Assembly: GCA_964569045.1 (NCBI GenBank)
Contig: CAZMSR010000001.1
Location: 66,593-130,592, forward strand
DNA: 64,000 bases
Origin: an uncultured Gammaproteobacteria bacterium
GTDB lineage: Bacteria > Patescibacteriota > Patescibacteriia > Patescibacteriales > BS150m-G62
Direction: 5' to 3'
Position 1 is the stretch's first letter. Each line of letters opens with the position of its first letter. Below, piece after piece: positions 8,512-59,268 of the stretch. A model generated the notes under the pieces. That model was not told where the DNA came from. It saw nothing but the letters and a program-made list of their open reading frames with translations, and made no database searches. The translations under genes were made by a program, and so were the position numbers.

Positions 8512-10779
8512 ATGTTTAAGTTAGAAAGATTAATTAAAATAGGGTTTTATTTGGCTTTATGCCTACCTTTTGCATTTACTAGTCGAACTATGTATCCTTG
8601 GCATTTTGGCAAGACTGTTTTATTTCAAATATTGGTTGAGATTTTATTAATTTTAGGCTTAATAGATTTATTGCTTAGAAAAAGCAAGTTTTTTAAAAAA
8701 AAGTTAGTTTTAAATAATGTGGATATTAAAGTTCAGTTATTTAAGCTTTGTTGGTTTGATATATTAGTTTTATTATTTATTGGTATGCAGCTTGTGTCTG
8801 TTTTGTTAGGAGTAAACCCTGAAAGAAGTTTTTGGGGAACAGAGCAAAGGGTTCAAGGTCTGTTTACATGGACTCACTTTGTTTTATTCTATTATTTACT
8901 AAGAATATACATACGCACAAAAAAAGAATGGCTAAATTTTGGCTTTGCGTTTGTTTTAATCGCTGGTTTATCAAGTGTTGTAGCAATATTTGGGCATAAT
9001 TTTAGTTTTTTAAGAGGAATTGTGCTTGAGACAAGCAGAGTTTCGGGTTTACTGGGTAACCCGATTTTTTTAGCCGGGTATTTGATTATCCCGTTATTTA
9101 TTTGTTTAGCTTTAATTATAAAAACAAATAAAATTAAACAGAAAATTTTAATATTAAATTTTATTTTAATATTAGTAGCAATTATAATGACTCAGACTAG
9201 AGGCGCATATGTTGGGGTAATTGTTGGGTTTATTGCTATGTTTGTTCTTTATGTAAAGTATGGACTTAGTGGGTTTATAAAGCGCAATATTAGTATTGTA
9301 GTTACTGTTATATTATTACTATTTAGCGCAATTTATGTCTTTAATATTAAATCAAATTATCTATTAGAAAACTATTCAAAAATATCTCATGCTATAGATA
9401 TCAATCCTAGTTCTACCACTGCAAGTACTCGTTTACTTTCTTGGCAAGTTGCACTAGAAGGGTGGCGTGAAAAACCTTTTTTTGGCTGGGGTCTGGAAAA
9501 TTTTCAAGATTTATTTGATAATAATTATAAAGCAGATTTTCTTGATTATGGTTTTGGAGAAACTGTGTGGGATAAGCCGCATAATAATTTGGTTGAAGTG
9601 CTTTCTGAGAGTGGGGTAATAGGATTAATTCTGTATTTAACTATTATAATTTATGGTTTAAAAATTCTTTTAAATTATATTATTCAAATTGAAAATGACA
9701 AAAGTAAAATTACGTATATTGCAGTATTTGCTGCGCTTGTATCTTTTGAGGTTCAGAACTTTTTTTCTTTTTTTACTTCTGATTCACTTCTTGTTTGGAT
9801 TGTGATATTAGCCTTTATTGGGCAGATTTCTAAAAAGAAAAGCAAATATAATTTAAATAAGTTACTTGAGTTTAATGGTTTAAAAAACATATATTTCGGT
9901 GGTGCTGTATTAATAATTATTGCTTGTATGTATTTTATTAATACAAACATTAGTATATTTAAAACATCGGTAGTAATGGCAGACGCTCGTGATTGGGCTG
10001 AGGTTGGTTCGGTTTATCAATGGAAGAAACATGTTGAGTTATCATTAGAAAATGGAGGTATTTATGATTGGGAGCGAGCTGTGCTTGTTATAAGGGATTT
10101 GAGTTTTTTATCAAATAATGGGATTTTAAGTACTGAAATCTTAAAAGATATTCATAAAGATCTTGAAAATATTTTGGTTCAAGAAATCAAAAAAAATCCT
10201 CAGTCATATATGCTTAGATTTTGGTTATCTCAATTTTATGTATTAATGGGAGAATATGTAGATATTAAGTTTATAGATAAATCTAATCAATTATTAAAAG
10301 AGGCTGGAGGTATAAGTATTGAAAGACAGCAAGTGCCTTTGCACTTAAGTAAGAATTATCTAATAACTGGAGAAAAAGAAAAAAGTATTAGCATTTTAAG
10401 AGATTTAGTACTAAAAAATAAAGGTAGACCGGAATCTCATTGGTTTCATGGCATATCTTTAATAAATAATAATCAAATACAAGAAGGAGTGGATGAACTA
10501 GAAAAAGGCATAGAATTTGGTATGGATAGTAAACAGAATGCATTATATTTAATAGATAATTATGCTAAGCTTGAGCGTTTTGAGTCTATTGTTAAGATTT
10601 ATATTGAGTTAATAAAAAAAGAACCTGACAATGATCAGTTTTATGCTAGTTTAGCTGCTACTTATGCTGCTTTAAATGATTTTGATAACATGAGAAAAAA
10701 TTTAGAAAAAGCAGTAGAACTTAACCCTGCTTTAAAAGAAGAGGCAGAAATTTTTATGCAAAATAATTTAATAAATTAG
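8512..10779 (+). CDS. Wzy_C / O-antigen-ligase-family polytopic membrane protein fused to a C-terminal TPR array
   Basis: Many TM helices. MTQTRGAYVG loop and PHNNLVEVLSESGVIGL (H-N-x7-E-x-G-x2-G-L box shared with 13994 and 32322). The C-terminal 250 aa are TPR-like (YASLAATYAALNDFDNMRKNLEKAVELNP). Confidence 0.75.
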   Translation: MFKLERLIKIGFYLALCLPFAFTSRTMYPWHFGKTVLFQILVEILLILGLIDLLLRKSKFFKKKLVLNNVDIKVQLFKLCWFDILVLLFIGMQLVSVLLGVNPERSFWGTEQRVQGLFTWTHFVLFYYLLRIYIRTKKEWLNFGFAFVLIAGLSSVVAIFGHNFSFLRGIVLETSRVSGLLGNPIFLAGYLIIPLFICLALIIKTNKIKQKILILNFILILVAIIMTQTRGAYVGVIVGFIAMFVLYVKYGLSGFIKRNISIVVTVILLLFSAIYVFNIKSNYLLENYSKISHAIDINPSSTTASTRLLSWQVALEGWREKPFFGWGLENFQDLFDNNYKADFLDYGFGETVWDKPHNNLVEVLSESGVIGLILYLTIIIYGLKILLNYIIQIENDKSKITYIAVFAALVSFEVQNFFSFFTSDSLLVWIVILAFIGQISKKKSKYNLNKLLEFNGLKNIYFGGAVLIIIACMYFINTNISIFKTSVVMADARDWAEVGSVYQWKKHVELSLENGGIYDWERAVLVIRDLSFLSNNGILSTEILKDIHKDLENILVQEIKKNPQSYMLRFWLSQFYVLMGEYVDIKFIDKSNQLLKEAGGISIERQQVPLHLSKNYLITGEKEKSISILRDLVLKNKGRPESHWFHGISLINNNQIQEGVDELEKGIEFGMDSKQNALYLIDNYAKLERFESIVKIYIELIKKEPDNDQFYASLAATYAALNDFDNMRKNLEKAVELNPALKEEAEIFMQNNLIN

Positions 10780-10794
10780 AAGATTAATAAACAG

Positions 10795-10851
10795 AGTAAC
10801 TACCCGCTAACTCTTTGTTCAAAAAGCACAAAGAGTTAGCGGGTAGTTACT
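10795..10851. other. Perfect 23-bp inverted repeat hairpin (possible terminator or protein-binding palindrome)
   Basis: agtaactacccgctaactctttg (10795-10817) and caaagagttagcgggtagttact (10829-10851) flank the 11-nt loop ttcaaaaagca. It is relatively GC-rich and has no U-tract on either side. Confidence 0.6.
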
Positions 10852-11558: not shown

Positions 11559-13853
11559 ATGTTTAAAAAATTTATATATTATTCATTTAGTTTACTGGTA
11601 TTATGTTTTTTTTACGCTAATTCTAGTAAGGCTGAAATTATTCCGGCATATGATTATTATGCTAAAGAAATAGTAATAGAGCCTACTTATCCAACTGTAA
11701 ATCAAGATGTGGTTATTAAAATTAAAATAGAGAATTTAGGTGATTTAGCAGCAACGTCTACATCTAACTTTGATTCTTATTCAATAAATTTTGAAGATTT
11801 TGAGCTAACAAGCGCTAAGTTGGATAGCGTAACACAGACTCAGCAATTTAGGCCGGGCAAAGAGATATTCTATGAAATAAAGGGAAAATTTACTACAAAG
11901 GGTCTTAAAGACCTATCTTTTACTATTGATAGCGATAATGAATTAGCAGAAGAAAACGAAAATAATAATTCAATTAGTGGTGCTATAAGAATTGAAAATT
12001 ATGATGATTTGTCTATTGAAGATATTAGTTTTACACCTGAAAAGCCGGCAATGAATCAGGATATAACAATTCGTATTAAGGGTAAAAATAAAGGAAATCG
12101 TAATTTAACCAGCATGAAGGGTTTAACTACTTATGAATTAAATTTCCCTGATTTTGTAATAGATGATATTTCATCTAGCACGCGACCTTCTGTGTCTAGT
12201 CCGGTAGAGCCGGATGAATTTTTTTATATTGATGTTGAAGGGCGATTTTTAACCGGAGGTGAAAAATTGTTAGAGTTTCAAATAGATACCGGTGATGAAT
12301 TAGTTGAAAGACAGATTGATGATAACACAGATTTTGTTGATAGTAATGCTAATAATTATTATTCAGAATACTTAACAGTATTATCAGTTAACACTGATTT
12401 TGAAGTGAATGAAGTAGAAGTTGACTTAGATAAAAATGTAGTAAATTATGATACTGAGATAACTTATTTAGTAAAAAATAACGGAGAGACAACATGGACA
12501 ACTGCAGATGGACTTAAAAGAAGTTATTATAAATATATTAACGATGTTGATGAGGATTTCCCCGGTTTCGTTATTGAATCTAAAACACAAGATGAATTTC
12601 CTTCACTATCTAATCCAATTAAGTCTGGTGAAAAGTATAAATTTATTTACACCGGTAGATTTGAAAAAATAGGAACTCATAACCTGTATTTTGGCGTGGA
12701 TGTTAATAATAAGGTTATGGAGACTAATGAAAACAATAATGCTACAACAACAAGTATTACAATATACTCTACTGAAAATGAGGTTGACGCATTTAAAGTT
12801 TTAGATTTTGAACTAAATTACATCAGTTCGTCTTCGATTGAAGTAAAATGGAATACAAGCAAGCTTACTCAAGGCAAGGTTCTTCATCGATATAAGTGCT
12901 GTGAATTTCCTGTCATCGAAGTCGAAAGCGAAGTATCAGATGACGGAGCGTATGAGCATTCTGTGATTATTGATGATTTTAAGCCTGATGTTGGGTATTA
13001 TTATAAAATTGTTGCTACAAGGGACTCAGTTACTAAGGATCTAGGCTTAAGAGAGTTTTGGATGCCGGCGACTAATCAAATAAAATTTACTAGCAATCCG
13101 TCTGTTTTAGTAGATTCAGCTAATAAAAAGGCTAATATTGCTTGGAGTACTAATATAGTTGCAGATGCTAACTTGTATTATAAACTAAAAGAAAGTGAAG
13201 AATATAGTTTGTTGGCTACTTCTACCGCTTTTAGTGCTCATTCTTTTGATTTAACAAATTTAGACTTTGGTGAGTATGAATATTATGTTATTGCAAGTTC
13301 AACCGTTAATACTAGTGCAACAAGTCAAGTTCAGAGTTTTTCTTTAATAGAGCCTATAAAAGAGCGTGAATATTCTGCACCTACTGACTATTCTGTAAAA
13401 GATGTTTATAAATTAAGTGAATCAAAAGATGTAATATTAGTAACTAATGGGCAATTGTTTAAAAAATTAAAAGGCAAGATTCTTTTAAAAATTGAAGATG
13501 CTGGTGAGGCTTGGTATGTTAGCCCCGTAGATGCTAAAAAGTATTATTTAGGTAGGCCTAAAGATGCTTTTAATATTATGAGAACTTTAGGGATTGGTGC
13601 AACTAATGCGGATTTGGCAAAGATTCAAGTTGGAGATAAATATGTACCAAAAATGGCCAGAACCAAATTTGATCATGATTTTGCTAAAAAACATAGTGGA
13701 AAAATATTTTTAGCGGTTGAAGAAAATGGCGAAGCTTGGTATGTTAATCCTACTGATTTAAAGCGATATTATTTAGGTCGTCCGGAAGATGCTTTTAAGA
13801 TAATGAGAGAATTAAGCACAGGTATTACTAATGAGGATTTTATAAGTTTGTAG
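11559..13853 (+). CDS. Secreted multi-domain surface protein: CARDB-like repeats, FN3-like region and two C-terminal GEAWYV modules
   Basis: Signal peptide MFKKFIYYSFSLLVLCFFYANSSKA. CARDB-like segments (NQDVVIKIKIENLGDLAA..ENENNNS, NQDITIRIKGKNKGNRNL). Two roughly 50-aa C-terminal modules (GKILLKIEDAGEAWYVSPVDAKKYYLGRPKDAFNIMRTLGIG and GKIFLAVEENGEAWYVNPTDLKRYYLGRPEDAFKIMRELSTG). Confidence 0.6.
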   Translation: MFKKFIYYSFSLLVLCFFYANSSKAEIIPAYDYYAKEIVIEPTYPTVNQDVVIKIKIENLGDLAATSTSNFDSYSINFEDFELTSAKLDSVTQTQQFRPGKEIFYEIKGKFTTKGLKDLSFTIDSDNELAEENENNNSISGAIRIENYDDLSIEDISFTPEKPAMNQDITIRIKGKNKGNRNLTSMKGLTTYELNFPDFVIDDISSSTRPSVSSPVEPDEFFYIDVEGRFLTGGEKLLEFQIDTGDELVERQIDDNTDFVDSNANNYYSEYLTVLSVNTDFEVNEVEVDLDKNVVNYDTEITYLVKNNGETTWTTADGLKRSYYKYINDVDEDFPGFVIESKTQDEFPSLSNPIKSGEKYKFIYTGRFEKIGTHNLYFGVDVNNKVMETNENNNATTTSITIYSTENEVDAFKVLDFELNYISSSSIEVKWNTSKLTQGKVLHRYKCCEFPVIEVESEVSDDGAYEHSVIIDDFKPDVGYYYKIVATRDSVTKDLGLREFWMPATNQIKFTSNPSVLVDSANKKANIAWSTNIVADANLYYKLKESEEYSLLATSTAFSAHSFDLTNLDFGEYEYYVIASSTVNTSATSQVQSFSLIEPIKEREYSAPTDYSVKDVYKLSESKDVILVTNGQLFKKLKGKILLKIEDAGEAWYVSPVDAKKYYLGRPKDAFNIMRTLGIGATNADLAKIQVGDKYVPKMARTKFDHDFAKKHSGKIFLAVEENGEAWYVNPTDLKRYYLGRPEDAFKIMRELSTGITNEDFISL

Positions 13854-13993: not shown

Positions 13994-16234
13994 ATGTCAA
14001 AAAATATATATGAATTGATTTTAAAAGGAGGGCTTTATTTATCGCTTATAGCTGTTTTGCTTGTGTATAATGGATTTTTGTTTCCATTTATAACTACCAA
14101 GCAAATATATTTTAATATTTTAATTGAAGTTTTAAGTGTATTTTGGATTGTGTATTTGCTTAGATTTCCAGAAGAAAGACCTAAAAAAACATGGGTTAGT
14201 GTTGGGCTTGTTGCTTACTTTAGTGCGGTTTTGCTGAGTTCTATATTTGGAATAGACTTTAATTTAAGTTTTTGGGGTGATATTGAAAGGATGTTGGGGT
14301 TTTTTCATATAGCTCATTTTTTAGTGTTTTATTTTATATTAATCACTGTTATGCGTGAGTGGAAGGACTGGAAATATATGTTTGCATTTTCTCTTTTGCT
14401 TTCCGCAGTGGTTAGCTATAAATCACTTACCGGTAAGACATATTCAACTATTGGAAATACTGCTTATGTTGCCGGTTATCTTATTTTTAATATATATTTT
14501 GTTTTAATATTATTTTTTAAAGAAAAGAATTCAAAATTGAGATGGGTATATGTCTTGTTTTTGCCGCTTTTGGTAAAAACATTTTTAAATACTGGTTCGT
14601 CTGGTGGAACAGTCGGATTAGCAAGCAGTATTTTTGTTTTATTTTTTTTGTACGGATTATTTAGCGAAAATAAAAAAATCAAAAAAATAACTCTTGGACT
14701 CGCTATAATTTTAGTTATTGGAGTTGTGGGTTTATTTAGTAATAGAGAGTTGATAAAAAACTTCTCTGTTTTAAGTGATATAAGGTTGGATAAAAATACT
14801 TTTCAAACCAGGTTAATATCATGGAGGGCAGCTATGAATGATTTACCCAATCATACGCTTTTTGGGACCGGTTTTGGTAATTTTGCTATTACTTTTGACA
14901 AATACTTTGAGTCAACTTTTTATGACCACACTCGTTCAGAAACTTATTTTGATAGAGCGCATAATAATATTATTGAAATCGCTTCAACAACCGGTTTGAT
15001 AGGATTAATCACTTATCTTTCGGTATTTTTAGCGCTTGGCTTTAGTTTAATAAGAGGGTTTAAAAAAGGCGTGATTAATATAAGTGATTTTGCTTTAGTA
15101 AGTGCTGCGCTTGTTGGATATTTTGTACAAAATTTAGCTGTTTTTGACTCGCTTGTAACTTATACGGCTTTAATGATGGTTTTAGCATATAGCTATTATT
15201 TAAATAATAAATTAGAAATTAGAAATGATTTAGATAAAGTAATGCATAATATAGAAATAAATAAAATGCAAAATAAAAAGTATTTAGAGCAAAAAGATGA
15301 ACTAAAAGTTTTGGGCATTGTTGGTGCAATTATTTTTGTAATTATTTATAAAGGAAATATTGAGCCAATAAAAATGCTTAAATCAACAATACATGGCCAA
15401 GTGGCCTTTGCGCAAGGTAATGTTGAAGTGGGTTATAGTCATTATGTGAAAGCTTTAAGTTTTAATACCGGGCTTGATAGGGATTCAAGAAACACATTTG
15501 TTCGTGAAGTTGCTAATAGGCTTAAATTTTTTGAATCACTTGAAAAAGAAAAAGCAGAAGAAATTATTACTTTTGCAATTAATGCTATTGAAAAGAATGT
15601 TGAGATGAATCCAAGGGATAGTCTTGTGCTAATGCAGCAATCTCAGCTGTATAGATCTGTGGCAATGTATTATGGTAAATTAGATCCTCAAAAGGCGCTT
15701 GAATTTTTTAAAAAAGCTGATTTAGCTATTAATAAATCAATAGAAAGTTCTCCCGGAAGGATAAGGGTATATTTTTTTAAAGCACAAGTATTGCTTTCAG
15801 CAGGTAAAATTAACGAGGCAATTGATGTTTTAAAATATGCAGCAAGCTTAAATGAAAATTATTATGACAGTTTTTGTCATTTAGGAAATTTAGAGATAAT
15901 TGATAAAAGATTAGAAGAGGGTTATAAAAATATAGACAAGTGTCTCGAACTAGAAGGACAAAAAGTGCTAAGAGACCCAAAATTTGTTTTAGATTTAATA
16001 AAGCATTATCAGTCAAAAGAAGATATTGATAAAGTTATAATTCTTTTTGAAAGGCTTAGCGAAATTGATGCTAAAAATGCTCAAGTTCTTGTAGAATTAG
16101 CAAGATATTACGCTATTTCCGGAGAGATTGACAAGGCAAAAAAAACAGCCTTGCAGGCCGGCTTGGTTGATCCAACATTAAAAAAGGCAGCACAAGAATT
16201 TGTTGGCTCGTTGGGTAATGTTATTTCTGATTAA
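13994..16234 (+). CDS. Second Wzy_C / O-antigen-ligase-family membrane protein fused to TPR repeats (paralog of 8512..10779)
   Basis: Same architecture as 8512..10779. NTFQTRLISWRAA and AHNNIIEIASTTGLIGL box. C-terminal TPR region (NAQVLVELARYYAISGEIDKAKKTALQAGLVDP). Confidence 0.75.
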   Translation: MSKNIYELILKGGLYLSLIAVLLVYNGFLFPFITTKQIYFNILIEVLSVFWIVYLLRFPEERPKKTWVSVGLVAYFSAVLLSSIFGIDFNLSFWGDIERMLGFFHIAHFLVFYFILITVMREWKDWKYMFAFSLLLSAVVSYKSLTGKTYSTIGNTAYVAGYLIFNIYFVLILFFKEKNSKLRWVYVLFLPLLVKTFLNTGSSGGTVGLASSIFVLFFLYGLFSENKKIKKITLGLAIILVIGVVGLFSNRELIKNFSVLSDIRLDKNTFQTRLISWRAAMNDLPNHTLFGTGFGNFAITFDKYFESTFYDHTRSETYFDRAHNNIIEIASTTGLIGLITYLSVFLALGFSLIRGFKKGVINISDFALVSAALVGYFVQNLAVFDSLVTYTALMMVLAYSYYLNNKLEIRNDLDKVMHNIEINKMQNKKYLEQKDELKVLGIVGAIIFVIIYKGNIEPIKMLKSTIHGQVAFAQGNVEVGYSHYVKALSFNTGLDRDSRNTFVREVANRLKFFESLEKEKAEEIITFAINAIEKNVEMNPRDSLVLMQQSQLYRSVAMYYGKLDPQKALEFFKKADLAINKSIESSPGRIRVYFFKAQVLLSAGKINEAIDVLKYAASLNENYYDSFCHLGNLEIIDKRLEEGYKNIDKCLELEGQKVLRDPKFVLDLIKHYQSKEDIDKVIILFERLSEIDAKNAQVLVELARYYAISGEIDKAKKTALQAGLVDPTLKKAAQEFVGSLGNVISD

Positions 16235-16280: not shown

Positions 16281-16331
16281 ATGTTCACTCATCATTTAGC
16301 ACTACGGTAGTATAGAATGATGAGTGGATAT
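16281..16331 (+). repeat. CACTCACCAT-terminus repeat family (A), miniature copy A3
   Basis: atgtTCACTCATCATTtagcactacggtagtatagAATGATGAGTGGAtat. The arms pair with a single T:G mismatch. Flanked by gttattgt / gttattat. Lies between convergent genes. Confidence 0.7.
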
Positions 16332-16335
16332 GTTA

Positions 16336-17526
16336 TTATTTATAAATATTATTTGTTTTTTTTATCATTGAGTTTATATTAAACGCATTTTCAACAGTTG
16401 TTTTAAGGTTTATGCCGTATTTTTTTCTTTTTTCTGCGTTATAAATAAGCTCACTAATTGATTTGGCTAATGCTTGAGAATTACTTGGCTCAACTAATAG
16501 CCCATTGTAGTTATTGCTCAAAATATCCGGTACTCCTCCAACATTAGTAGCTACTACAGCTCTTTCTGCTAGGCCGGCTTCTAATATTGAGTATGGTAAA
16601 CCTTCTTTTACTGAAGACGAAACATAAATATCAAAAGCTTTTAGGTATTTACCGGCATTGTTTATTGCTCCGGCTAAATAAATATCATCAGATAAATTTT
16701 CAGAAGTTATAAGTTTTTCTAATTTGTTTCGAGTTAAGCCTTTACCAATAATTATAGCTTTAATTTTTGTTTCATTGCCTATTTGTACTTGAAGAGCGGT
16801 TTTTGATATTTTAAAGGCTTTTATAAAGTTTTCATAGTCTTTTGTAGGGTATAAGTTTCCAATTAACCCTATTAATAGTGTGTTGCTTTCTAGATTAATA
16901 TTCTTGAGCGGTTTAATAGACCTTAGCTCTAGAAGAGCATTTTTTTTGTTTAAGAAATTGATTTTTTTGTTATTTATGCCATTTGATATTAATTTAAGTT
17001 TATTTTTTGGAATTCTTAAAATGTTTTGTGCAATATCTAAATCCTTTTTATTAATGCAAATTATAGTGTCCTTAAATTTTGCAAAAATTGATTCAGCTAA
17101 TTTATAGAATTTGATTTTTATTTTATTTAAAGGTTCTAAAAAAACCCAACCATGCACAGTGTATATAACATTAAATTGCATTTTATATATCCAAGATTTT
17201 GTAATAAAGCAAGCTAAACTACCAATGATTGAAATTTTTGAAGAATTTAAATGCACTATGCTGGGTTTAACAATTTTAATAATTTGAACAAGTTTAAAAA
17301 TCGTTATTATGTCCTTTATTGGGGATATGGAACGTTTCAATGAATTAATACAATAATACGAGATGTCGTGTTCTTTTAATTTTTTGGCAAATTCATTTTC
17401 TGTAGTCTCGCAACCGGCAATAACTCCAATGCGATATTCATCAGATAAATTACTAGCTAGATCATAAATGTATTTTTGGGCACCACCAAATTCAGATTGA
17501 GTCACAATATATAGTATTGTTTTCAT
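16336..17526 (-). CDS. Glycosyltransferase, GT4 family
   Basis: N-terminus SEFGGAQKY. C-terminus SVKEGLPYSILEAGLAERAVVATNVGGVPD (GT4 E-x7-E region). Confidence 0.85.
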   Translation of the reverse strand: MKTILYIVTQSEFGGAQKYIYDLASNLSDEYRIGVIAGCETTENEFAKKLKEHDISYYCINSLKRSISPIKDIITIFKLVQIIKIVKPSIVHLNSSKISIIGSLACFITKSWIYKMQFNVIYTVHGWVFLEPLNKIKIKFYKLAESIFAKFKDTIICINKKDLDIAQNILRIPKNKLKLISNGINNKKINFLNKKNALLELRSIKPLKNINLESNTLLIGLIGNLYPTKDYENFIKAFKISKTALQVQIGNETKIKAIIIGKGLTRNKLEKLITSENLSDDIYLAGAINNAGKYLKAFDIYVSSSVKEGLPYSILEAGLAERAVVATNVGGVPDILSNNYNGLLVEPSNSQALAKSISELIYNAEKRKKYGINLKTTVENAFNINSMIKKTNNIYK

Positions 17527-17586
17527 AAAATATTTTTTTTATGTGTAGTTATTTTATAATAATATACATTTAACAAAGATTGCTTT

Positions 17587-17784
17587 AGCATCCACTCACC
17601 ATTTTGTGTTAGGGTGGTGTAAATTTTTACTAATTATATAGTTGTAATGCAGTGATTTTTAATAAGAATCAAACGCACAAATTATTTTTTTATACAACTA
17701 TTTAAAATAACTAAGAGACACTGCGTGTTTAGCTAGGGTTAGTTAAGATTTATACTACTGTGGTGTTAAATGGTGAGTAGATAC
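17587..17784 (-). repeat. Family-A repeat, full copy A1 (198 bp), inverted partner of A2
   Basis: The reverse complement matches 18811-18964 plus 19130-19173 with two substitutions, by hand alignment. It carries the uninterrupted site caactatataattagtaaaaattt. Confidence 0.9.
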
Positions 17785-17798
17785 TCTACTTAACACCT

Positions 17799-18731
17799 CT
17801 ACTTAATGCCCATTTTCTTTTTATATAACGACAACCATTTAATTAAATCAATAGCAGGGTCCCAGGATAGTAACTTGTGAGCCTTTGAATTATTAGCAAG
17901 ATTTATTCTCGGCTCAATTCTTGGTTCAACATACGCAACCTCGCCGCCAATAGCTCGTGCAATTTCGTTTATACTATAATTTTTACCACTACCAATATTA
18001 ATAACTTCGCCAGAGCTTATACCATTGTTTAAGGCAGCCTTAATATTTGCTTGAGAAACATCATCGGCGCTCACAAAATCTCTGCGTTGTTCGCCATCTC
18101 CAGTTACTGTTAGAGCTTCACCGCTCAATCTCTGTCTAGTAAAAATACCTAATACCAAACTATAACCTCCTTTAAGCGACATTCTGTCCCCAAAAACATT
18201 AAAATAACGTAAACACACTGTTCTTAATCTATAAATATCGCTATATAATTTGCAATACATCTCCCCTGCTAGTTTTTGCACAGCATAAGGACTTAGTGGA
18301 TTTATTTTTGCTTCTTCGTTAACCGGGAAGCTCTCAGGATTTCCATAAATAGCCGCAGTTGAGCTAAACACAAACTTTTTAACATTAGCCAATCTTGACG
18401 CTTCTAATACATTTAAAGTTCCTTTTAGATTAATTTCATTATACAAAAGTGGATCTTCTATAGAGCCTTGCACAGCTACTAATGCCCCTAAATGAAAAAC
18501 ATAATCAACCCCACCAAACAACGACTTTATTTTATTAAAATACCTTATATCAGCTTTAACAAATTTTGCACCTGGATTTATATTTTCTTTTTTACCTGTA
18601 AAAAGATTATCAACTACAGTAACTTTAAAACCCTGCTCAATTAAAGCATCTACTAAATGAGAGCCTATAAAACCAGCCCCTCCTATAACTAAGCATTTCA
18701 TATATTTAAAATAATTTTTAATATTTAACAC
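17799..18731 (-). CDS. NAD-dependent sugar-nucleotide epimerase/dehydratase (GalE/WbpP-like extended SDR)
   Basis: VIGGAGFIGSHLVDAL (Rossmann fold) and SPYAVQKLAGE (YxxxK). 310 aa. Confidence 0.8.
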   Translation of the reverse strand: MLNIKNYFKYMKCLVIGGAGFIGSHLVDALIEQGFKVTVVDNLFTGKKENINPGAKFVKADIRYFNKIKSLFGGVDYVFHLGALVAVQGSIEDPLLYNEINLKGTLNVLEASRLANVKKFVFSSTAAIYGNPESFPVNEEAKINPLSPYAVQKLAGEMYCKLYSDIYRLRTVCLRYFNVFGDRMSLKGGYSLVLGIFTRQRLSGEALTVTGDGEQRRDFVSADDVSQANIKAALNNGISSGEVINIGSGKNYSINEIARAIGGEVAYVEPRIEPRINLANNSKAHKLLSWDPAIDLIKWLSLYKKKMGIK

Positions 18732-18810
18732 TAATATTTTATAATATCATACACTTCTATTTTACAGAAGTGTTGCACTTACTTATTGAATTCGGTCTAG
18801 GTTAGAGCAA

Positions 18811-19173
18811 GTATCTACTCACCATTTAACACCACAGTAGTATAAATCTTAACTAACCCTAGCTAAACACGCAGTGTCTCTTAGTTATTTTAAATAGTTG
18901 TATAAAAAAATAATTTGTGCGTTTGATTCTTATTAAAAATCACTGCATTACAACTATATAATTAGGGACTGTCGCCAAACTCGCCTCACCCATAAATTGT
19001 TAATTTTGGCTAAATTTTTTTCAAATTTTTTTGGCTTACCTTAGGGTAGGCCTCAAAAATTATTCAAAAAATTTATCTTAAAATTTCCAAATTTATGAAT
19101 TAAAGCGAGTTTGGCGACAGTCCCAATTAGTAAAAATTTACACCACCATAGCACAAAATGGTGAGTGGATGCT
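18811..19173 (+). repeat. Family-A repeat, full copy A2, interrupted by the 160-bp TIR element
   Basis: Runs from gtatCTACTCACCATTTaacaccacagtagtataaat to aaatttacaccaccatagcacAAAATGGTGAGTGGatgct. 198 bp of A sequence plus the 160-bp insert plus a 5-bp duplication gives 363 bp. Confidence 0.9.
18965..19124 (+). mobile_element. 160-bp MITE-like TIR element, copy B1 (nested in A2), TSD AATTA
   Basis: GGGACTGTCGCCAAACTCGC ... GCGAGTTTGGCGACAGTCCC are 20-bp perfect TIRs. AATTA lies at 18960-18964 and 19125-19129. The empty site is present in A1. No ORF. The body is an imperfect palindrome. Confidence 0.9.
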
Positions 19174-19219
19174 TAGTAGATAGTTATTATTTTTATTTTT
19201 TTGTGTTATAATATTTGTA

Positions 19220-20515
19220 ATGTTTAAAAGATTGCAAATATTAATTTTATTTATATATTTATTTGCTGCTAATACTACTAATGCAGCGATTATTTCTGAT
19301 CCAACGCCATCTTCTTCTGTTGGTGAATATGTTGGGTCTTTGTCACTAAAAGCTACAAAGGTATCTGGATTTTCTTATGGTTTAGAGTTAGAACCTGGTC
19401 AAAAGGATGTTGAGTTACTTAAGTTTAATTTAGAATTAAGAGGGTCAGAGGGTGCTAAGCTAACATGGCTTGGTTTGCGTCAAATTGGGTTTGAAAATAA
19501 ATTTACCAATTTAAGAGCGTATTATGGGAATTCTAAGCAGGGTAGAACGATAAATAATGATGATTTTCTTGGTGAAGTTATTGATTTTTATAGTTTAGGG
19601 CAGAATTTTGAAAAAAATACTCGTAATAGAATAAGAATAGTGGGTGATGTGTTAAGTACAGCTCCTCAAGGTCCGGCAACACTTGCTTTTGCCGGTGCTG
19701 ACTTTATTGGTTCTGATACTAATTGGGTTAGATCAATAGCTGAGATTACAAATGCGATTGAATCGAGTATTATTACAGCTGATGATACAAGATTTATTAG
19801 ACCCGTTGATCCCGGTGATGAGATTGAGGATGAATTTATTGACCCAATTGACCCTGTTTTGCCTCCAATTGACCCTGTTTTGCCTCCAATTGACCCTGTT
19901 TTGCCACCTTTAGAAGATGATGCATGCGATTCTGATTATCCAACTACAGCGGTTAGTGTAAAAGATATTGGATTGTATAATGAGCTAAAAGGACGGATTG
20001 TTCTAAAGGTTGAGGAGAACGGAGAGGCATTTTATATTCATCCAACAAAACAATATATGTATTATTTATGTCGCCCACGTCATGCTTTTAAGATTATGCG
20101 TGAGCAAGGAATAGGAATTTCAACTTTAAATTTAGAGAAAATGCCTTATGGTCTTAGTGATTTAAGTGGTAATGACAAAGATGGTGATGGCTTGCCTGAT
20201 ATTTTTGAAGATGCAATAAAAACTGATAAAAATTTAGCTAATACTGATGGAGAGGATTATTCGGACCGAGTTGATATTTTGAATGGTAGTAATCCACGCA
20301 AATCAGGAAGTTTAAATAAGAATATTTTAGGATCAATTATGCATAATGGAAAAATTTTTTTACAAGTTGAGGATAATGGCGAAGCTTGGTATGTTTATCC
20401 TGTTGATTCTATTAGGTATTATTTAGGTCGCCCTAGGCATGCTTTTACTATTATGAGAAACATGGGGCTTGGAATAAATAATAAAGATTTTAATAAAATA
20501 TATTTTGATAACTAA
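19220..20515 (+). CDS. Secreted protein with Pro-rich tandem linker, calcium-binding TSP3-like motif and two GEAWYV modules
   Basis: Signal peptide MFKRLQILILFIYLFAANTTNA. (PIDPVLP)x3 linker. NDKDGDGLPDIFED. Modules GRIVLKVEENGEAFYIHPTKQYMYYLCRPRHAFKIMREQGIG and GKIFLQVEDNGEAWYVYPVDSIRYYLGRPRHAFTIMRNMGLG. Confidence 0.6.
   Translation: MFKRLQILILFIYLFAANTTNAAIISDPTPSSSVGEYVGSLSLKATKVSGFSYGLELEPGQKDVELLKFNLELRGSEGAKLTWLGLRQIGFENKFTNLRAYYGNSKQGRTINNDDFLGEVIDFYSLGQNFEKNTRNRIRIVGDVLSTAPQGPATLAFAGADFIGSDTNWVRSIAEITNAIESSIITADDTRFIRPVDPGDEIEDEFIDPIDPVLPPIDPVLPPIDPVLPPLEDDACDSDYPTTAVSVKDIGLYNELKGRIVLKVEENGEAFYIHPTKQYMYYLCRPRHAFKIMREQGIGISTLNLEKMPYGLSDLSGNDKDGDGLPDIFEDAIKTDKNLANTDGEDYSDRVDILNGSNPRKSGSLNKNILGSIMHNGKIFLQVEDNGEAWYVYPVDSIRYYLGRPRHAFTIMRNMGLGINNKDFNKIYFDN
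19847..19909 (+). repeat. 21-bp tandem repeat x3 (attgaccctgttttgcctcca) inside the CDS
   Basis: Units at 19847-19867 and 19868-19888 are identical. The 19889-19909 unit has a variant end. A partial unit precedes at 19838-19846. The repeat encodes IDPVLPP. Confidence 0.9.
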
Positions 20516-20517
20516 AT

Positions 20518-21549
20518 ATGAAATTAATTAATTTTTCAACAATATTTATTTCACTTGTATTGGGATTTTATATTTTATTTATTGGTAAGTCGTTTTTCAT
20601 ACCATTAGTTATTGCTATAGTTATTTGGTATTTAATAATTGCTATGGCTAGTGCTTTTGGTAAGCTGATGTTAAATGAAAAGAAAGCAATTCCACATTGG
20701 CTTGCTGTATTTTTTTCACTTGTGTCTATATTTGCAATTTTTTGGATTCTAATCGGCTTATTAAACGCTAATATTCAAGCAGTGGTTAAAGCTGTTCCGG
20801 AATATCAGGTTAAGTTTCAGGCATTAATTGTGAAATTATTTGATGTCTTGCAGATTGATAAATCACCTACACTTGATACAGCTCTAGAGTCTATAAATTT
20901 AACAAGCATAGTAGGAAATTTAGCTAATTTTGCTGCTACGTTAGCCGGTAACATTAGCATGATTTTTATATATGTTTTATTTTTATTGGCTGAGTATCGA
21001 ACATTTAATAAAAAATTTGCAAAATTATTTAATAGTAAAAAGCAGTTAAGTCGCGTTAGTGATATAATGAATAAAATTGATCAAGATATTAAAACATATA
21101 TATCTATAAAAAGTGCCGTTAGTTTACTTACTGCTTTTTTAAGCTATGTAGTCCTTGTTATTGTGGGAGTAGATTTTCCAGTTTTTTGGGCACTTATTAT
21201 ATTTTTATTAAATTTTATCCCAACCGTTGGTTCAATTATTGCTGTTATTTTTCCGGTTTTACTTACTTTGATTCAGTTCGATACTTTTGGACCGTTTGTT
21301 ATTGTATTTACTTTATTAATTTCTATTCAAATGTTGATTGGAAACGTGCTTGAACCTAAATTAATGGGTAAATCTCTTAATTTAAGTCCACTCGTAATTA
21401 TTATATCTTTGGTGCTTTGGGGAAATATTTGGGGAATAACCGGAATGTTTTTATGTGTTCCAATTATGGTTATATTGAATATTATATTATCTAAATTTTC
21501 AAAAACTCGTAACTGGGCAATTATGTTTTCTGCTACCGGACGAATATAA
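20518..21549 (+). CDS. AI-2E family transporter (PerM/YhhT-like permease)
   Basis: Eight TM-like segments. FIPTVGSIIAVIFPVLLTL and LEPKLMGKSLNLSPLVIIISLVLWGNIWGITGMFLCVPIMV are typical of the family. Confidence 0.8.
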   Translation: MKLINFSTIFISLVLGFYILFIGKSFFIPLVIAIVIWYLIIAMASAFGKLMLNEKKAIPHWLAVFFSLVSIFAIFWILIGLLNANIQAVVKAVPEYQVKFQALIVKLFDVLQIDKSPTLDTALESINLTSIVGNLANFAATLAGNISMIFIYVLFLLAEYRTFNKKFAKLFNSKKQLSRVSDIMNKIDQDIKTYISIKSAVSLLTAFLSYVVLVIVGVDFPVFWALIIFLLNFIPTVGSIIAVIFPVLLTLIQFDTFGPFVIVFTLLISIQMLIGNVLEPKLMGKSLNLSPLVIIISLVLWGNIWGITGMFLCVPIMVILNIILSKFSKTRNWAIMFSATGRI

Positions 21550-28682: not shown

Positions 28683-28842
28683 GGGACTGTCGCCAAACTC
28701 ACTTTAATTCATAAATTTGGAAATTTTAAGATAAATTTTTTGAATAATTTTTGAGGCATACCCTAAGGTAAGCCAAAAAAATTTGAAAAAAATTTAGCCA
28801 AAATTAACAATTTATGGGTGAAGCGAGTTTGGCGACAGTCCC
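28683..28842 (-). mobile_element. 160-bp MITE-like TIR element, copy B2 (inverted orientation), TSD ATGAT
   Basis: Same 20-bp termini as B1. ATGAT lies at 28678-28682 and 28843-28847. It sits between the kinase start (28631) and the radical-SAM gene end (29013). Confidence 0.9.
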
Positions 28843-46761: not shown

Positions 46762-48987
46762 ATGATGATTAAGATAACATCTTTTTTAATATTTGTATTG
46801 CCGATTGTTATTGGTAATTTTTTTGTATCTTCAAAAGTTGCGCAAGCTAGTGTTAATGCTTTAAATCAAGAAGTATTAATAAAATATAAAAATAAAGAAA
46901 AGGTAGAGCTTAGGTTTTTAAAAGAAGGTCAAGATCAGGATAAGTATATAAAAATGCTATTAAAAGATAAAAATATAGAATATGTTGAGCCAAATTTTGT
47001 TTATAAACAAGCGATTATTCCTTCTGATACTTATTATGATAAGCAATGGTATTTTAAGAAAATAAAAGCATTTGAGGCTTGGGATGTTGTAAAAGAAAGC
47101 AAGGATATTGTTATTGCTGTGCTTGACTCCGGTGTTCAAATTGATCATCCGGATTTAAAAGATAATATATGGCGTAATATAAAAGAGGCTAAAAATGACA
47201 TTGATGATGATAAAAACGGGTATATTGATGATGTCTATGGGTGGGATTTTATAAATAAAACCGGTGATCCCGGACCAAAATTTAATAAAGGTTTTAATGA
47301 AGCAGGAGTAATGCATGGTACTATTGTTGCAGGAATTGCTGCTGCACGCGGAAATAATGCGCTTGGAGTGTCCGGTGTTACTTGGAGGGCTAAGTTAATG
47401 TCTCTAAAAGTTTTGGACGATAATGGCGAGGGTCGTACAGATAAGGTTGTGGAAGCTATTGATTACGCAATTAAGCATGATGTTGATATAATTAATTTAA
47501 GTTTTGTAGGATTTGGTAATTCAAAAAGTTTAGAGCACGCAATTGAAAGGGCCCACAATGCCGGTATTATTATTGTTGCCGCAGCCGGCAATGACCAAGG
47601 TCAGGGTGATGGGTATTTTTTAGATGATACACCAATGTACCCAGCTTGCCATGATGGACCTATTGGTGAGAATTGGGTAATTGGGGTTGCGGCAACTGAT
47701 GCGCTAGATCAGAAAACCGCATTTTCAAGTTATGGCTTTAGATGTGTTGATATTGCTGCTCCAGGCGTAAGTATTTTTACAACAAGTATATATGCACCCT
47801 TAAAGCACTATGAAAAAGAACCGTTTAATCAGTATTATCAAGGATATTGGTCTGGTACTTCAATGGCAGTGCCAATGGTAACAGGAGCTGTTGCTTTAAT
47901 TAAGGCTGTTAACCCATCTCTTGATAAGCATGGTATTTACAATGTTCTTTTTGAAAAGTCAGATAATATTAGTCGTTTGAATCAGAAATATTTAGGTCGT
48001 TTGGGTAATGGAAGGTTAAATATCGGAGCCTCTGTTAAGTATGCTTCTTATTTGCTTCAGTCTCAAAAGCAAAAAATTATTGTTGTGCCAAATAAAAATA
48101 GTAGTGCCATGATTCGATTTTTTGAAAAAAGCGGTGAAAAAGTAAATGAATTTATGCTTTTTGATAAAAAGTTTTTAGGTGGAGCTAATTTAGCTAGTTG
48201 TGATCTTGATGGTGATGGTAGTTCAGAAATTTTGGCCGGTGCTGGTAATGGTGGTGGACCACAAGTAAGAGTATTTAACTCGCAAGGTGAATTAAAGATG
48301 CAATTTTTTGCGTTTGATTTAAATTTTTTAGGAGGGGTAGATGTTGATTGCGGTGATTTAAATAATGATGGTTTTGTTGAAATTATTGTTGGAGCTGGCA
48401 ATGGAGGTGGTCCGCATGTTAGAATATTTGATATAGATGGAAAATTGCGAGGAAGTTTTTTTGCATATGACCCAAGATTTAGAGGTGGAGTCAATGTGAG
48501 TGTCGGTGATATTGATGGAGATGGAAATGATGAGATTGTTACAGGAGCGGGTGTGAAGGGGGGTCCTCATGTGAGAATATTTAATGGACATGGAAAAGTC
48601 ACCGGTCATTTTTTTGCCTTTGATAAAAAATTCAGGGATGGTGTTAATGTAGCTATAGCAAAGTTTAATGGATTTGCATCCGGTAAAAAAGAAAAGATTG
48701 TGGTATCACAAGTCTATGGAGGCGATCCAATGGTTAAAATTTTTAATAATCATGGTAAAGTGCTTCGAGTTTTTTATGCTTATGACAAAAAGTTTAGAGG
48801 AGGCGTAAATATAGCTACTGGAGATATTGATAAAGATGGATATGATGAGGTTGTTACCGGAGCTGGATTTGGTGGCGCACCTCATGTGAGAATATTTGAA
48901 TACAATGGTAAATTTATTAATTCATTTTATGCATTTGAAAAAGATTTTAGTGGAGGCGTTGCTGTTGGAGTAGTAAATACAAATTAA
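46762..48987 (+). CDS. Secreted subtilisin-like S8 peptidase fused to about five FG-GAP/VCBS-like repeats
   Basis: Catalytic triad contexts AVLDSGV, HGTIVAGIAAA and GTSMAVPMVTGA. The C-terminal half repeats the unit GD(L/I)DGDG..E(I/V)(V/L)(T/A)GAG.GGGPHVRIF. Confidence 0.85.
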   Translation: MMIKITSFLIFVLPIVIGNFFVSSKVAQASVNALNQEVLIKYKNKEKVELRFLKEGQDQDKYIKMLLKDKNIEYVEPNFVYKQAIIPSDTYYDKQWYFKKIKAFEAWDVVKESKDIVIAVLDSGVQIDHPDLKDNIWRNIKEAKNDIDDDKNGYIDDVYGWDFINKTGDPGPKFNKGFNEAGVMHGTIVAGIAAARGNNALGVSGVTWRAKLMSLKVLDDNGEGRTDKVVEAIDYAIKHDVDIINLSFVGFGNSKSLEHAIERAHNAGIIIVAAAGNDQGQGDGYFLDDTPMYPACHDGPIGENWVIGVAATDALDQKTAFSSYGFRCVDIAAPGVSIFTTSIYAPLKHYEKEPFNQYYQGYWSGTSMAVPMVTGAVALIKAVNPSLDKHGIYNVLFEKSDNISRLNQKYLGRLGNGRLNIGASVKYASYLLQSQKQKIIVVPNKNSSAMIRFFEKSGEKVNEFMLFDKKFLGGANLASCDLDGDGSSEILAGAGNGGGPQVRVFNSQGELKMQFFAFDLNFLGGVDVDCGDLNNDGFVEIIVGAGNGGGPHVRIFDIDGKLRGSFFAYDPRFRGGVNVSVGDIDGDGNDEIVTGAGVKGGPHVRIFNGHGKVTGHFFAFDKKFRDGVNVAIAKFNGFASGKKEKIVVSQVYGGDPMVKIFNNHGKVLRVFYAYDKKFRGGVNIATGDIDKDGYDEVVTGAGFGGAPHVRIFEYNGKFINSFYAFEKDFSGGVAVGVVNTN

Positions 48988-54082: not shown

Positions 54083-54241
54083 GGGATGTCGCCAAACTCG
54101 CTTCACCCATAAATTGTTAATTTTGGCTAAATTTTTTTCAAATTTTTTTGGCTTACCTTAGGGTAGGCCTCAAAAATTATTCAAAAAATTTATCTTAAAA
54201 TTTCCAAATTTATGAATTAAAGCGAGTTTGGCGACAGTCCC
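54083..54241 (+). mobile_element. 160-bp MITE-like TIR element, copy B3, TSD CTAAA
   Basis: The left TIR has a 1-nt deletion (GGGA-TGTCGCC). CTAAA lies at 54078-54082 and 54242-54246. It sits between convergent genes. Confidence 0.9.
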
Positions 54242-56849: not shown

Positions 56850-56902
56850 TAGATATTAGTGAAAATTTACACCATTATAGTGCTAAATGGTGGGTGGGTA
56901 TA
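56850..56902 (+). repeat. Family-A repeat, right-hand part only (A5a)
   Basis: tagatattagtgaaaatttacaccattatagtgctAAATGGTGGGTGGGtat aligns with the right third of A2. It starts 12 nt after the upstream stop codon. Confidence 0.75.
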
Positions 56903-58895: not shown

Positions 58896-59054
58896 ATGCC
58901 CACTTACTATTTAGCACTGTGGTAGTATAAATTTTAACTAATTTTAGTTAAATACGAAGTGTCTTTTAATTATTTTAAATGGTTGTGTATAAAAATAATT
59001 TGTAAATTTTCTTCTTATCAAAAACTACTGCATTATAACTAGATAATTAGTGAA
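58896..59054 (+). repeat. Family-A repeat, left-hand two-thirds only (A5b)
   Basis: Runs from atgcCCACTTACTATTTagcactgtggtagtataaatttt to cattataactagataattagtgaa. Collinear with A2 18811-18969, with many substitutions. Confidence 0.8.
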
Positions 59055-59268
59055 GAGATGCATATGTTGTGGGAGTAAGTATTTCTTTTTTTGTTGACAA
59101 GTGAATTTTATTATGATAAAAAGATATGATGTTCACATATCGGAAACTCTAAACAATTTATGGTTGCGGAGTTTTGATAGCTATGAATTTTTTAGAGTTT
59201 TCAGTTGTTTTTAGATGCCCTTTTAAATTAAATAAGCAGGATCAGTTACTTTTGGGTTGGAGGCTGTG

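Follow-up and report, generated by a model that had tools for sequence, protein, structure and literature searches.

Intramolecular replicative transposition in trans, as described for IS26, for Tn4401 of the Tn3 family and for IS1/IS903, results in what has been called "inversion-duplication" (He et al. 2015, mBio, PMC4471558). The signature of this process includes an inverted segment, the original element together with a new inverted copy of it, and a target duplication that is found inverted, one copy per element, with no target-site duplications (TSDs) directly abutting the elements (PMC4471558). A two-step alternative, consisting of a second insertion followed by inversion between the two copies, was named by the same authors (He et al. 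2015, PMC4471558). Among smaller elements, the Correia/CREE sequences are located at rearrangement points in Neisseria (PMC2649163), and bacterial MITEs (miniature inverted-repeat transposable elements) such as Correia/NEMIS, ERIC and RPE fold as RNA hairpins and affect neighbor genes (reviewed in PMC10969869). Here we analyze a stretch of 64,000 nucleotides (contig CAZMSR010000001.1, positions 66,593 to 130,592, referred to as the window) from an uncultivated member of the Patescibacteria (Candidate Phyla Radiation, CPR), in which two inverted copies of a 199-bp MITE-like element, named A, bracket a gene coding for a UDP-sugar 4-epimerase. The segment that includes this gene, which is a resident of the locus, was probably inverted through the pair of MITEs by either a one-step or a two-step route.

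Two other known arrangements are of interest for comparison. In invertons, such as those of the Bacteroides polysaccharide (PS) loci, fimS and Hin, a promoter is inverted between inverted repeats of tens of bp by a dedicated tyrosine or serine recombinase. MITE-bracketed units, e.g. class 1 integrons in Acinetobacter, carry foreign cargo, and the TSD that they show surrounds the unit as a whole. Outward promoters are present in Correia elements, and RNase III acts on them in their hairpin form. The genomes of Patescibacteria are small and usually regarded as repeat-poor; a full-text literature search found no work on MITEs in Patescibacteria.

Inverted repeats flanking the epimerase gene

A repeat search showed that nucleotides 17630-17785 and 18810-18965 are inverted copies of 156 nt that show 100% complementarity and are separated by 1024 nt. 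This inner pair was also found by BLAST of the window against itself (E=3e-76), and the outer parts of the arms, 17587-17635 and 19125-19173, match at 47 of 49 positions. The left copy of A encompasses nucleotides 17587-17785 (plus strand) and the right copy, inverted, nucleotides 18810-19173 (minus strand), where it is split by a second element, named B, into the A-derived parts 18810-18964 and 19130-19173. After excision of nucleotides 18965-19124 and one copy of AATTA, the target duplication of B, the arms are 199 nt each and identical at 197 positions. The two mismatches are found at 17609 (T/C) and 17612 (G/T), where one arm reads caccaccCtaAcac and the other caccaccAtaGcac, and both fall outside the B insertion point (0 of 156 inner vs. 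2 of 43 outer positions, Fisher p=0.046; p=0.004 when the mismatches in the TSDs described below are added). This pattern would fit recombination or gene conversion that homogenizes only the uninterrupted homology. No other near-identical copies of A are present in ~72 kb than these two, which lie 1 kb apart in inverted orientation.

The unique segment between the arms (17786-18809, 1024 bp) includes the epimerase gene and 108 bp of its upstream DNA. The gene (17799-18701, minus strand) is intact and codes for an extended short-chain dehydrogenase/reductase (SDR) of 300 amino acids that resembles GalE, WbpP and WbgU; the preferred start is ATG 18701 (MKCLVIGGAGFIGS...). The protein matched Pfam PF01370 (7e-60) and includes both the N-terminal NAD-binding motif GxxGxxG, as GGAGFIG (residue 7), and the catalytic motif YxxxK, as YAVQK (residue 139). 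Its best matches in PDB were UDP-glucose 4-epimerase 4zrm (7e-56) and WbgU/WbpP (1e-47), and its score with the NCBIfam GalE model, 183 bits, is under the cutoff, a value from which substrate specificity is not assignable. Homologues of the protein are annotated as Patescibacteria/Paceibacterota. A scan of open reading frames (ORFs) found none spanning an arm, so that the proteins cannot report the orientation of the segment.

A preliminary description of this DNA had counted 196 identical positions among 198 in the arms, which is essentially right, and had recognized that these bracket exactly one SDR epimerase gene, as both the repeat and the ORF analyses bear out. The divergent third copy that it placed at about 58896-59054 is real, with 80% identity, and its proposal of a recent duplication and/or gene conversion remains the best reading of a pair that has no other near-identical relative in the region. 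The gene span that it gave, 17799-18731, assumed a GTG start at 18731, which is less likely than the ATG at 18701. With the GTG start the spacers are 13 and 78 bp, close to the 14 and 79 bp given there; with the ATG they are 13 bp past the stop codon (17786-17798) and 108 bp before the start (18702-18809).

Ancestral organization of the locus

In the window the left arm is preceded by a gene for a GT4-family glycosyltransferase (GT; 16336-17526, minus strand), and the right arm is followed by genes for a conserved 431-amino acid protein of unassigned function (19220-20515, plus strand) and an AI-2E family transporter (20518-21549, plus strand). The "GT operon" that had been described as flanking the repeats is, on the left side, a single minus-strand GT gene beside a plus-strand Wzy_C gene. 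The closest homologue of the epimerase outside this species (68% identity) is encoded in an 88.8-kb contig, L031, where the gene order is Wzy_C-TPR(+), GT(-), epimerase(+), 442-amino acid protein(+), AI-2E(+), and further on DUF4012(-) and GT(-). A further homologue (61% identity) is found in contig L035 within the order Wzy_C-TPR(+), GT(-), UDP-sugar dehydrogenase(+), epimerase(+), 428-amino acid protein(+), AI-2E(+), and here the successive gaps between the genes for the dehydrogenase, the epimerase, the 428-amino acid protein and AI-2E are 27, 67, and 8 bp. A third relative of the epimerase, in L033 (60% identity), lacks this synteny and did not enter the comparison.

As determined by tblastn, the neighbors of the epimerase gene in L031 and L035 are orthologous to those in the window (57-85% amino acid identity) and are located on the same strands; both relatives keep Wzy_C(+), GT(-), the homologue of the 431-amino acid protein(+), AI-2E(+) and DUF4012(-). 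The only gene that is discordant is the epimerase gene itself, whose strand is minus in the window but plus in L031 and L035. Neither relative has A at the junction between the GT and epimerase genes, and in L031 the spacer at this position is 69 bp with no arm. The comparison points to an ancestral order GT(-), epimerase(+), 431-amino acid protein(+), AI-2E(+), with the epimerase gene co-directional with the two genes that are its ancestral downstream partners, and with respect to this order the segment 17786-18809 is inverted in the window. The GT gene, divergent from the epimerase gene in the relatives, is located downstream of it and in the same direction in the window. The preliminary description had proposed to look in related genomes for the presence, absence or orientation of the unit; orientation does differ, and A is absent, while the epimerase gene is a resident and not a cassette that is gained or lost.

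Putative target-site duplications of A

As the window stands, no direct repeat is found around either arm or around the whole unit. The outer-left and outer-right flanks share 1-4 positions for lengths of 2-12 nt (2 of 6 at n=6), which is the level of chance. The flanks pair instead in a reciprocal manner. The outer-left hexamer TGCTTT (17581-17586, plus strand), half of the putative target duplication of the left copy, matches at 5 of 6 positions the inner-right hexamer AGAGCA (18804-18809, minus strand; reverse complement TGCTCT), and the outer-right hexamer TAGTAG (19174-19179, plus strand), half of the putative target duplication of the right copy, matches at 5 of 6 positions the inner-left hexamer CTACTT (17786-17791, minus strand; reverse complement AAGTAG). 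The arrangement can be written as X[A>]rc(Y) ... rc(X)[<A]Y, where rc stands for reverse complement. When the segment is flipped back, each copy of A becomes flanked by 6-bp direct repeats with one mismatch, TGCTTT-A-TGCTCT and AAGTAG-A-TAGTAG. Matches of this quality were rare in 200,000 random sets of flanks from the window: P was 2e-4 when this configuration was required and 4.4e-4 when any of them was allowed.

In this arrangement the window has one copy of an inverted, putative target duplication per element and none abutting either copy, as in an inversion-duplication; the two-step route gives the same signature. Inverted copies of A bracketing an inverted segment, also a feature of inversion-duplication, are present as well, provided that the window was correctly assembled. 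Under this reading of the TSDs the empty left site can be reconstructed as ...GATTGCT[T/C]T joined to AACCTAG..., or more extensively as ...AAAGATTGCT[T/C]T joined to AACCTAGACCG..., and the empty right site as ...GTTAAGTAG joined to ATAGTT..., or ...GAGGTGTTAAGTAG joined to ATAGTTATTATT..., in which the stop codon region of the epimerase gene would be joined to the DNA upstream of the 431-amino acid protein gene. The empty left site shares 9 nt, TTGCTTTAA, with the GT-epimerase spacer of L031, but the distance to the start of the GT gene is not the same in the two and the match was not counted.

Orientation of the segment in independent contigs

In the assemblies of this organism by JGI and Logan the contigs are interrupted at the arms. 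L001 and L002 comprise the whole 1024-bp unique segment and, on each side, a further 119 or 30 nt (k-1) of arm; L003 and L007 end after 119 nt of an arm, and L005 and L006 after 30 nt of the shared part. These breaks indicate that the same inverted repeat is present in several samples and that short-read graphs cannot orient the segment. An ENA contig, L004, crosses one arm. It leads from the GT flank through a complete copy of A that lacks B into the 18809 end of the segment, i.e., it has the ancestral orientation, and its copy of A is directly flanked by AGAGCA/AAAGCA. L004 differs from the window by 2 SNPs (single-nucleotide polymorphisms) and an 11-bp deletion over 9.7 kb and must be considered a distinct, near-identical strain. 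In a plain de Bruijn assembler, an accidental crossing of the 156-nt repeat by this contig would need two uncovered junctions, for which we estimated P at ~1e-4 to 1e-6 assuming the 5-7x coverage implied by a 9.7-kb contig. A second contig of the same sample, L094, starts inside the 431-amino acid protein gene and is uninformative on the right arm; the L004 strain may lack the second arm and represent the state before a one-step event.

An inversion of the gene, which the preliminary description had envisaged as a result of recombination between the arms, appears to have occurred, as judged from the synteny, the reciprocal TSDs and the L004 junction taken together.

Possible routes of inversion

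The two copies of A would have come to occupy the two intergenic regions that flank a resident UDP-sugar 4-epimerase gene in a glycan region of the chromosome, and this could have happened in two ways. In the first, a single copy of A would undergo intramolecular replicative transposition to a target across the gene, which would at once generate the second, inverted copy and flip the segment. In the second, another insertion of A would be followed by RecA-type homologous recombination between arms of 156-199 nt. By either route, B would have been inserted into the right arm at a later time. The one-step route is slightly favored because no further near-identical copies of A exist in the ~72 kb than these two, at 1 kb from each other and inverted, because a single event explains the proximity of the copies, their inverted orientation, their identity and the inversion of the segment, and also because the only two states seen are those predicted as "before" and "after". 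The two-step route is fully viable, and the sequence alone cannot separate the two. Both are textbook processes and no new mechanism is involved.

The inversion would have uncoupled the epimerase gene from its ancestral co-directional cluster and left it reading toward the GT gene through the left copy of A. Expression of the gene is probably maintained, since its upstream DNA remains attached to it. General recombination over 156 nt of perfect homology can be expected to flip the segment back and forth, and nothing indicates a dedicated or regulated switch.

Several observations weigh against an inversion in general or against one of its routes. The main caveat is that the orientation of the window comes from an assembly, and short-read assemblers fail at 1 kb of DNA located between perfect repeats of 156 nt. 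Most public contigs break at the arms, and among those examined none other than the window crosses both. L004, which crosses one arm only, ends mid-gene. Each TSD pair of A carries one mismatch, and no independent copy confirms the length of the TSD. Pfam scans of the window, which covered ORFs of at least 120 amino acids, found no recombinase, integrase, invertase or transposase domain; a transposase able to mobilize A or B was found neither in the 64-kb window nor in public scans, and we purely infer that A transposes replicatively.

Alternative explanations

The first caveat leads to an alternative in which no rearrangement took place, the two copies of A being real and the gene lying in its ancestral direction, with the segment placed the wrong way round by the assembler; the locus would then amount to two insertions of MITEs, one of them with a second MITE nested in it. 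The breaks that most assemblies show at the arms (L001, L002, L003, L007) would be expected in such a case. In addition, the junctions of an arm with nucleotide 17786 and of an arm with nucleotide 18809 exist in either orientation, so that only spans of at least 156 nt decide, and the synteny, the logic of the TSDs and L004 all give the other orientation as the original one. We nevertheless consider this artefact unlikely. Assemblers that face a repeat that they cannot resolve normally break rather than guess, and the window belongs to a long contig (up to 133 kb on record) in which both arms are crossed. The artefact also requires two independent insertions of A, an element of low copy number, in opposite directions 1 kb apart with 156 nt identical, when the other copy in the 72 kb is 20% diverged, while a one-step duplicative inversion explains proximity, orientation and identity at no extra cost.

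It could also be proposed that the pair of MITEs is a phase-variation switch, i.e., a reversible whole-gene inverton that alternates between the transcription units epimerase-431-amino acid protein-AI-2E and epimerase-GT and varies the surface glycan. Both orientations are found in near-identical strains, the window and L004, although they come from different samples. GT and Wzy_C genes are numerous in the cell-surface glycan region to which the locus belongs, and the short gaps in L035 give the ancestral arrangement the appearance of an operon. The inner 156 nt of the arms have been kept identical, and near the outer end of A each arm carries the motif TTAAAA-18-TATAAT pointing outward (17662 to 17633 on the minus strand and 18933 to 18962 on the plus strand). 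A terminator-like hairpin followed by a T-run is also present near the outer end of both copies (17597-17619 on the plus strand and 19143-19164 on the minus strand), facing transcripts that enter from outside. We regard these motifs as leads only and do not claim them as functional; the number of promoter-like and terminator-like motifs in the region, 16 compared with 17.6 expected, is at the level of chance for AT-rich DNA. The switch is rendered highly improbable by other features as well: no invertase or recombinase gene was found in the window by the Pfam scans, the arms are copies of a transposon and not short dedicated recombination sites, and repeats of this kind are absent from the GT-epimerase junction of the relatives. 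Moreover, flipping would not turn the gene on or off, given that 108 bp of upstream DNA accompany it, and no mixed orientations within one sample are seen in the data, which consist of assemblies.

A variant of this idea needs no recombinase. General recombination would flip the epimerase gene, the outward promoter-like sites of A would drive again the neighbors that it abandoned, and the arms would stay identical under selection for flipping. This we also hold to be very doubtful; if true, populations of a Patescibacteria cell with a reduced genome would carry two expression states of the surface glycan.

The least tenable explanation is the composite transposon or cassette-like module of the preliminary description, in which two copies of A carried the epimerase gene as cargo into the glycan locus: two copies of one element do bracket exactly one gene, and in Acinetobacter there are known cases of integrons or resistance genes with a MITE on each side, but the orthologous epimerase gene stands at the same site between conserved neighbors in two relatives that lack A, for which reason we reject an imported cassette, no direct repeat is shared by the outer flanks of the unit, and the reciprocal pairing of the flanks is not what insertion of a unit predicts, leaving this reading with a negligible probability.

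The preliminary description had also considered that a transcript spanning both arms would fold into a duplex cleaved by RNase III. Such an inter-arm duplex would need a minus-strand transcript starting to the right of 19173, where there is no minus-strand gene, and the epimerase gene has its own 108 bp of upstream DNA inside the segment. Since B interrupts the right arm, any duplex would consist of 156 bp plus 43 bp. The idea seems weakly motivated; by analogy with the Correia elements, the single hairpins of A or B in transcripts could be RNase III or stability determinants.

Elements A and B

Element A can be considered a non-autonomous, non-coding, MITE-like element on the basis of its structure and of its length, which, like that of B, is well within the limit of ~600 bp for MITEs. 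Its termini are imperfect terminal inverted repeats (TIRs), AGCATCCACTCACCATTT ... AAATGGTGAGTAGATACT, which extend over 48 nt at 73% complementarity, and its RNA is predicted to fold into one long hairpin with an 18-bp terminal stem (dG -48.1, z -5.5). No ORF of at least 20 amino acids is found inside A, except at the edge proximal to the GT gene. The third copy (~58896-59095, minus strand, ~80% identity) is a diverged one located in another intergenic region; its local alignment score was 156 compared with a null of 23, and its flanks consist of T-runs that are ambiguous as TSD. The ~72 kb include two near-identical copies of A, one with 80% identity, and TIR-like fragments. These fragments, which resemble the terminus of A, are located in two other intergenic spacers (56855-56897 and 16287-16314; 28-43 nt, 77-86% identity), and one of them sits between the Wzy_C and GT genes, just to the left of the locus. 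They could represent solo TIRs that remain from older copies of A, or be matches by chance. Within the arms, both mismatches lie in the terminator-like hairpin of A, and B is inserted in the right arm 2 nt past the -10 box of the outward promoter-like motif.

Searches for A beyond this organism gave no relatives. A consensus of the termini, AGYATCYACTCACCATTT, was used to scan a genome collection and produced 22 single hits in unrelated taxa, all of them chance matches of 18-22 nt, and no GTDB representative carrying A was found with it. A scan of a metagenome collection with the outer-terminus 20-mer gave 0 hits, although contig L003 contains this 20-mer, and the collection evidently does not include the contigs of this organism; the same type of scan with a degenerate A terminus gave 52 hits, all of them by chance. 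At the gathering thresholds no Rfam family was found in the whole window, hence none matching A or B, and a tRNA search found none. The terminal sequences with which A or B could be matched to a cognate insertion sequence (IS) are AGCATCCACTCACC and GGGACTGTCGCC.

Element B, nested in the right arm (18965-19124), is a 160-bp palindromic MITE with perfect 20-nt TIRs, GGGACTGTCGCCAAACTCGC, bounded by a 5-bp target duplication, AATTA, at 18960-18964 and 19125-19129. Its RNA is predicted to be almost fully palindromic (dG -72.4, z -12.3), and the only coding sequence that overlaps it is a GTG ORF of 33 amino acids. Further copies are located at 28683-28842 (TSD ATGAT) and 54083-54241 (TSD CTAAA), and in contig L090 (645-804, TSD ATATT), which places the last one ~7 kb upstream of the window. 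The four copies in ~72 kb share 96-99% identity. The fact that all four have perfect 5-bp TSDs (AATTA, ATGAT, CTAAA and ATATT) indicates that MITE transposition has occurred in this genome. Their density is unusually high for a Patescibacteria genome.

A different palindromic MITE-like element of ~200 bp is found in L031 (8907-9171), bounded on both sides by TTAATTAAG. It sits in the spacer between the epimerase and the 442-amino acid protein genes, which in the ancestral orientation corresponds to the position of the right arm of the window; mobile elements seem to have landed in this spacer repeatedly. A relationship of this element with A, suggested by a MAFFT alignment, was discarded, as its local score of 25 equals the shuffled null (22.7+/-3.1).

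Other features of the region

The window has a G+C content of 31% and is a long cell-envelope and glycan region that includes genes for three Wzy_C-TPR proteins and about ten glycosyltransferases, as well as for CARDB, DUF4012 and DUF5667 proteins, MreB and an MraY-like protein. In the L004 strain, the 11-bp deletion (14272-14282 of the window) causes a frameshift that splits the 746-amino acid Wzy_C-TPR protein into ORFs of 647 and 93 amino acids, which points to a strain-level inactivation of a glycan polymerase/ligase-like gene adjoining the MITE locus. The gene of the 431-amino acid protein includes three tandem 21-bp repeats (CCAATTGACCCTGTTTTGCCTCC) at 19844-19908. Another part of this gene (20342-20490) shares stretches of ~120-150 bp, 74-79% identical in DNA, with nucleotides 13470-13840 of the gene for the CARDB protein (11559-13853), in the part coding for the C-terminus, and this indicates a repeated domain common to two surface-protein genes. 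A 57-nt palindrome with 88% self-complementarity (10795-10851) is found in the spacer that follows a Wzy_C gene (8512-10779) and could represent a terminator or one more small repeat. Internal direct repeats of ~180 bp with 70-72% identity (48304-48914), located in an S8 peptidase/FG-GAP gene (46762-48987), are most likely FG-GAP repeat units.

Comparison with known systems

The locus described here shares with the rearrangements generated by IS26 and Tn4401 the inverted segment, the inverted copies of the element and the reciprocal, putative target duplications. It differs from them in that the element is a non-coding MITE of 199 bp with no transposase found in the window and with a putative 6-bp TSD that has one mismatch per pair. 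It is also located in the chromosome of an uncultivated Patescibacteria and not in a resistance plasmid, and we only infer a replicative mechanism for A. With the inversions mediated by dispersed repeats it has in common small repeats that could provide homology for a RecA-dependent inversion, for which 156 nt are ample, and a two-step process would produce flank signatures such as those observed. The known cases usually involve large blocks, in contrast to the single 1-kb gene that would have been taken here out of an operon-like cluster.

As MITEs, A and B are similar to Correia/NEMIS, ERIC and RPE, i.e., small, non-coding elements with TIRs and TSDs (putative in the case of A), located in intergenic regions by gene ends and forming strong hairpins. 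They match no Rfam family and no element in the collections scanned, and they are apparently two undescribed families of MITEs in Patescibacteria. The resemblance to invertons lies in the inverted repeats on either side of a segment of a surface-glycan locus and in the two orientations seen; the differences are that the inverted repeats are not short, that no recombinase is found in the window and that a whole gene with its own upstream region is flipped. In the MITE-bracketed units of Acinetobacter, as here, two copies of one MITE bracket a functional gene, but the gene in our case is a resident and the TSDs are reciprocal.

For users of metagenome-assembled genomes (MAGs) the locus carries a warning, namely that the orientation of genes between MITE copies is unreliable in short-read assemblies and that such sites fragment cell-surface loci. 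Repeat-mediated and transposition-mediated inversions are textbook; what is new is the pair of MITE families and a clean example of a single-gene inversion in Patescibacteria. If reads confirm the inversion, this would be a clean natural case in which a tiny non-coding transposon reoriented a single resident gene and broke an operon-like cluster, with the state before the event, in L004 and the relatives, and the state after it, in the window, both visible.

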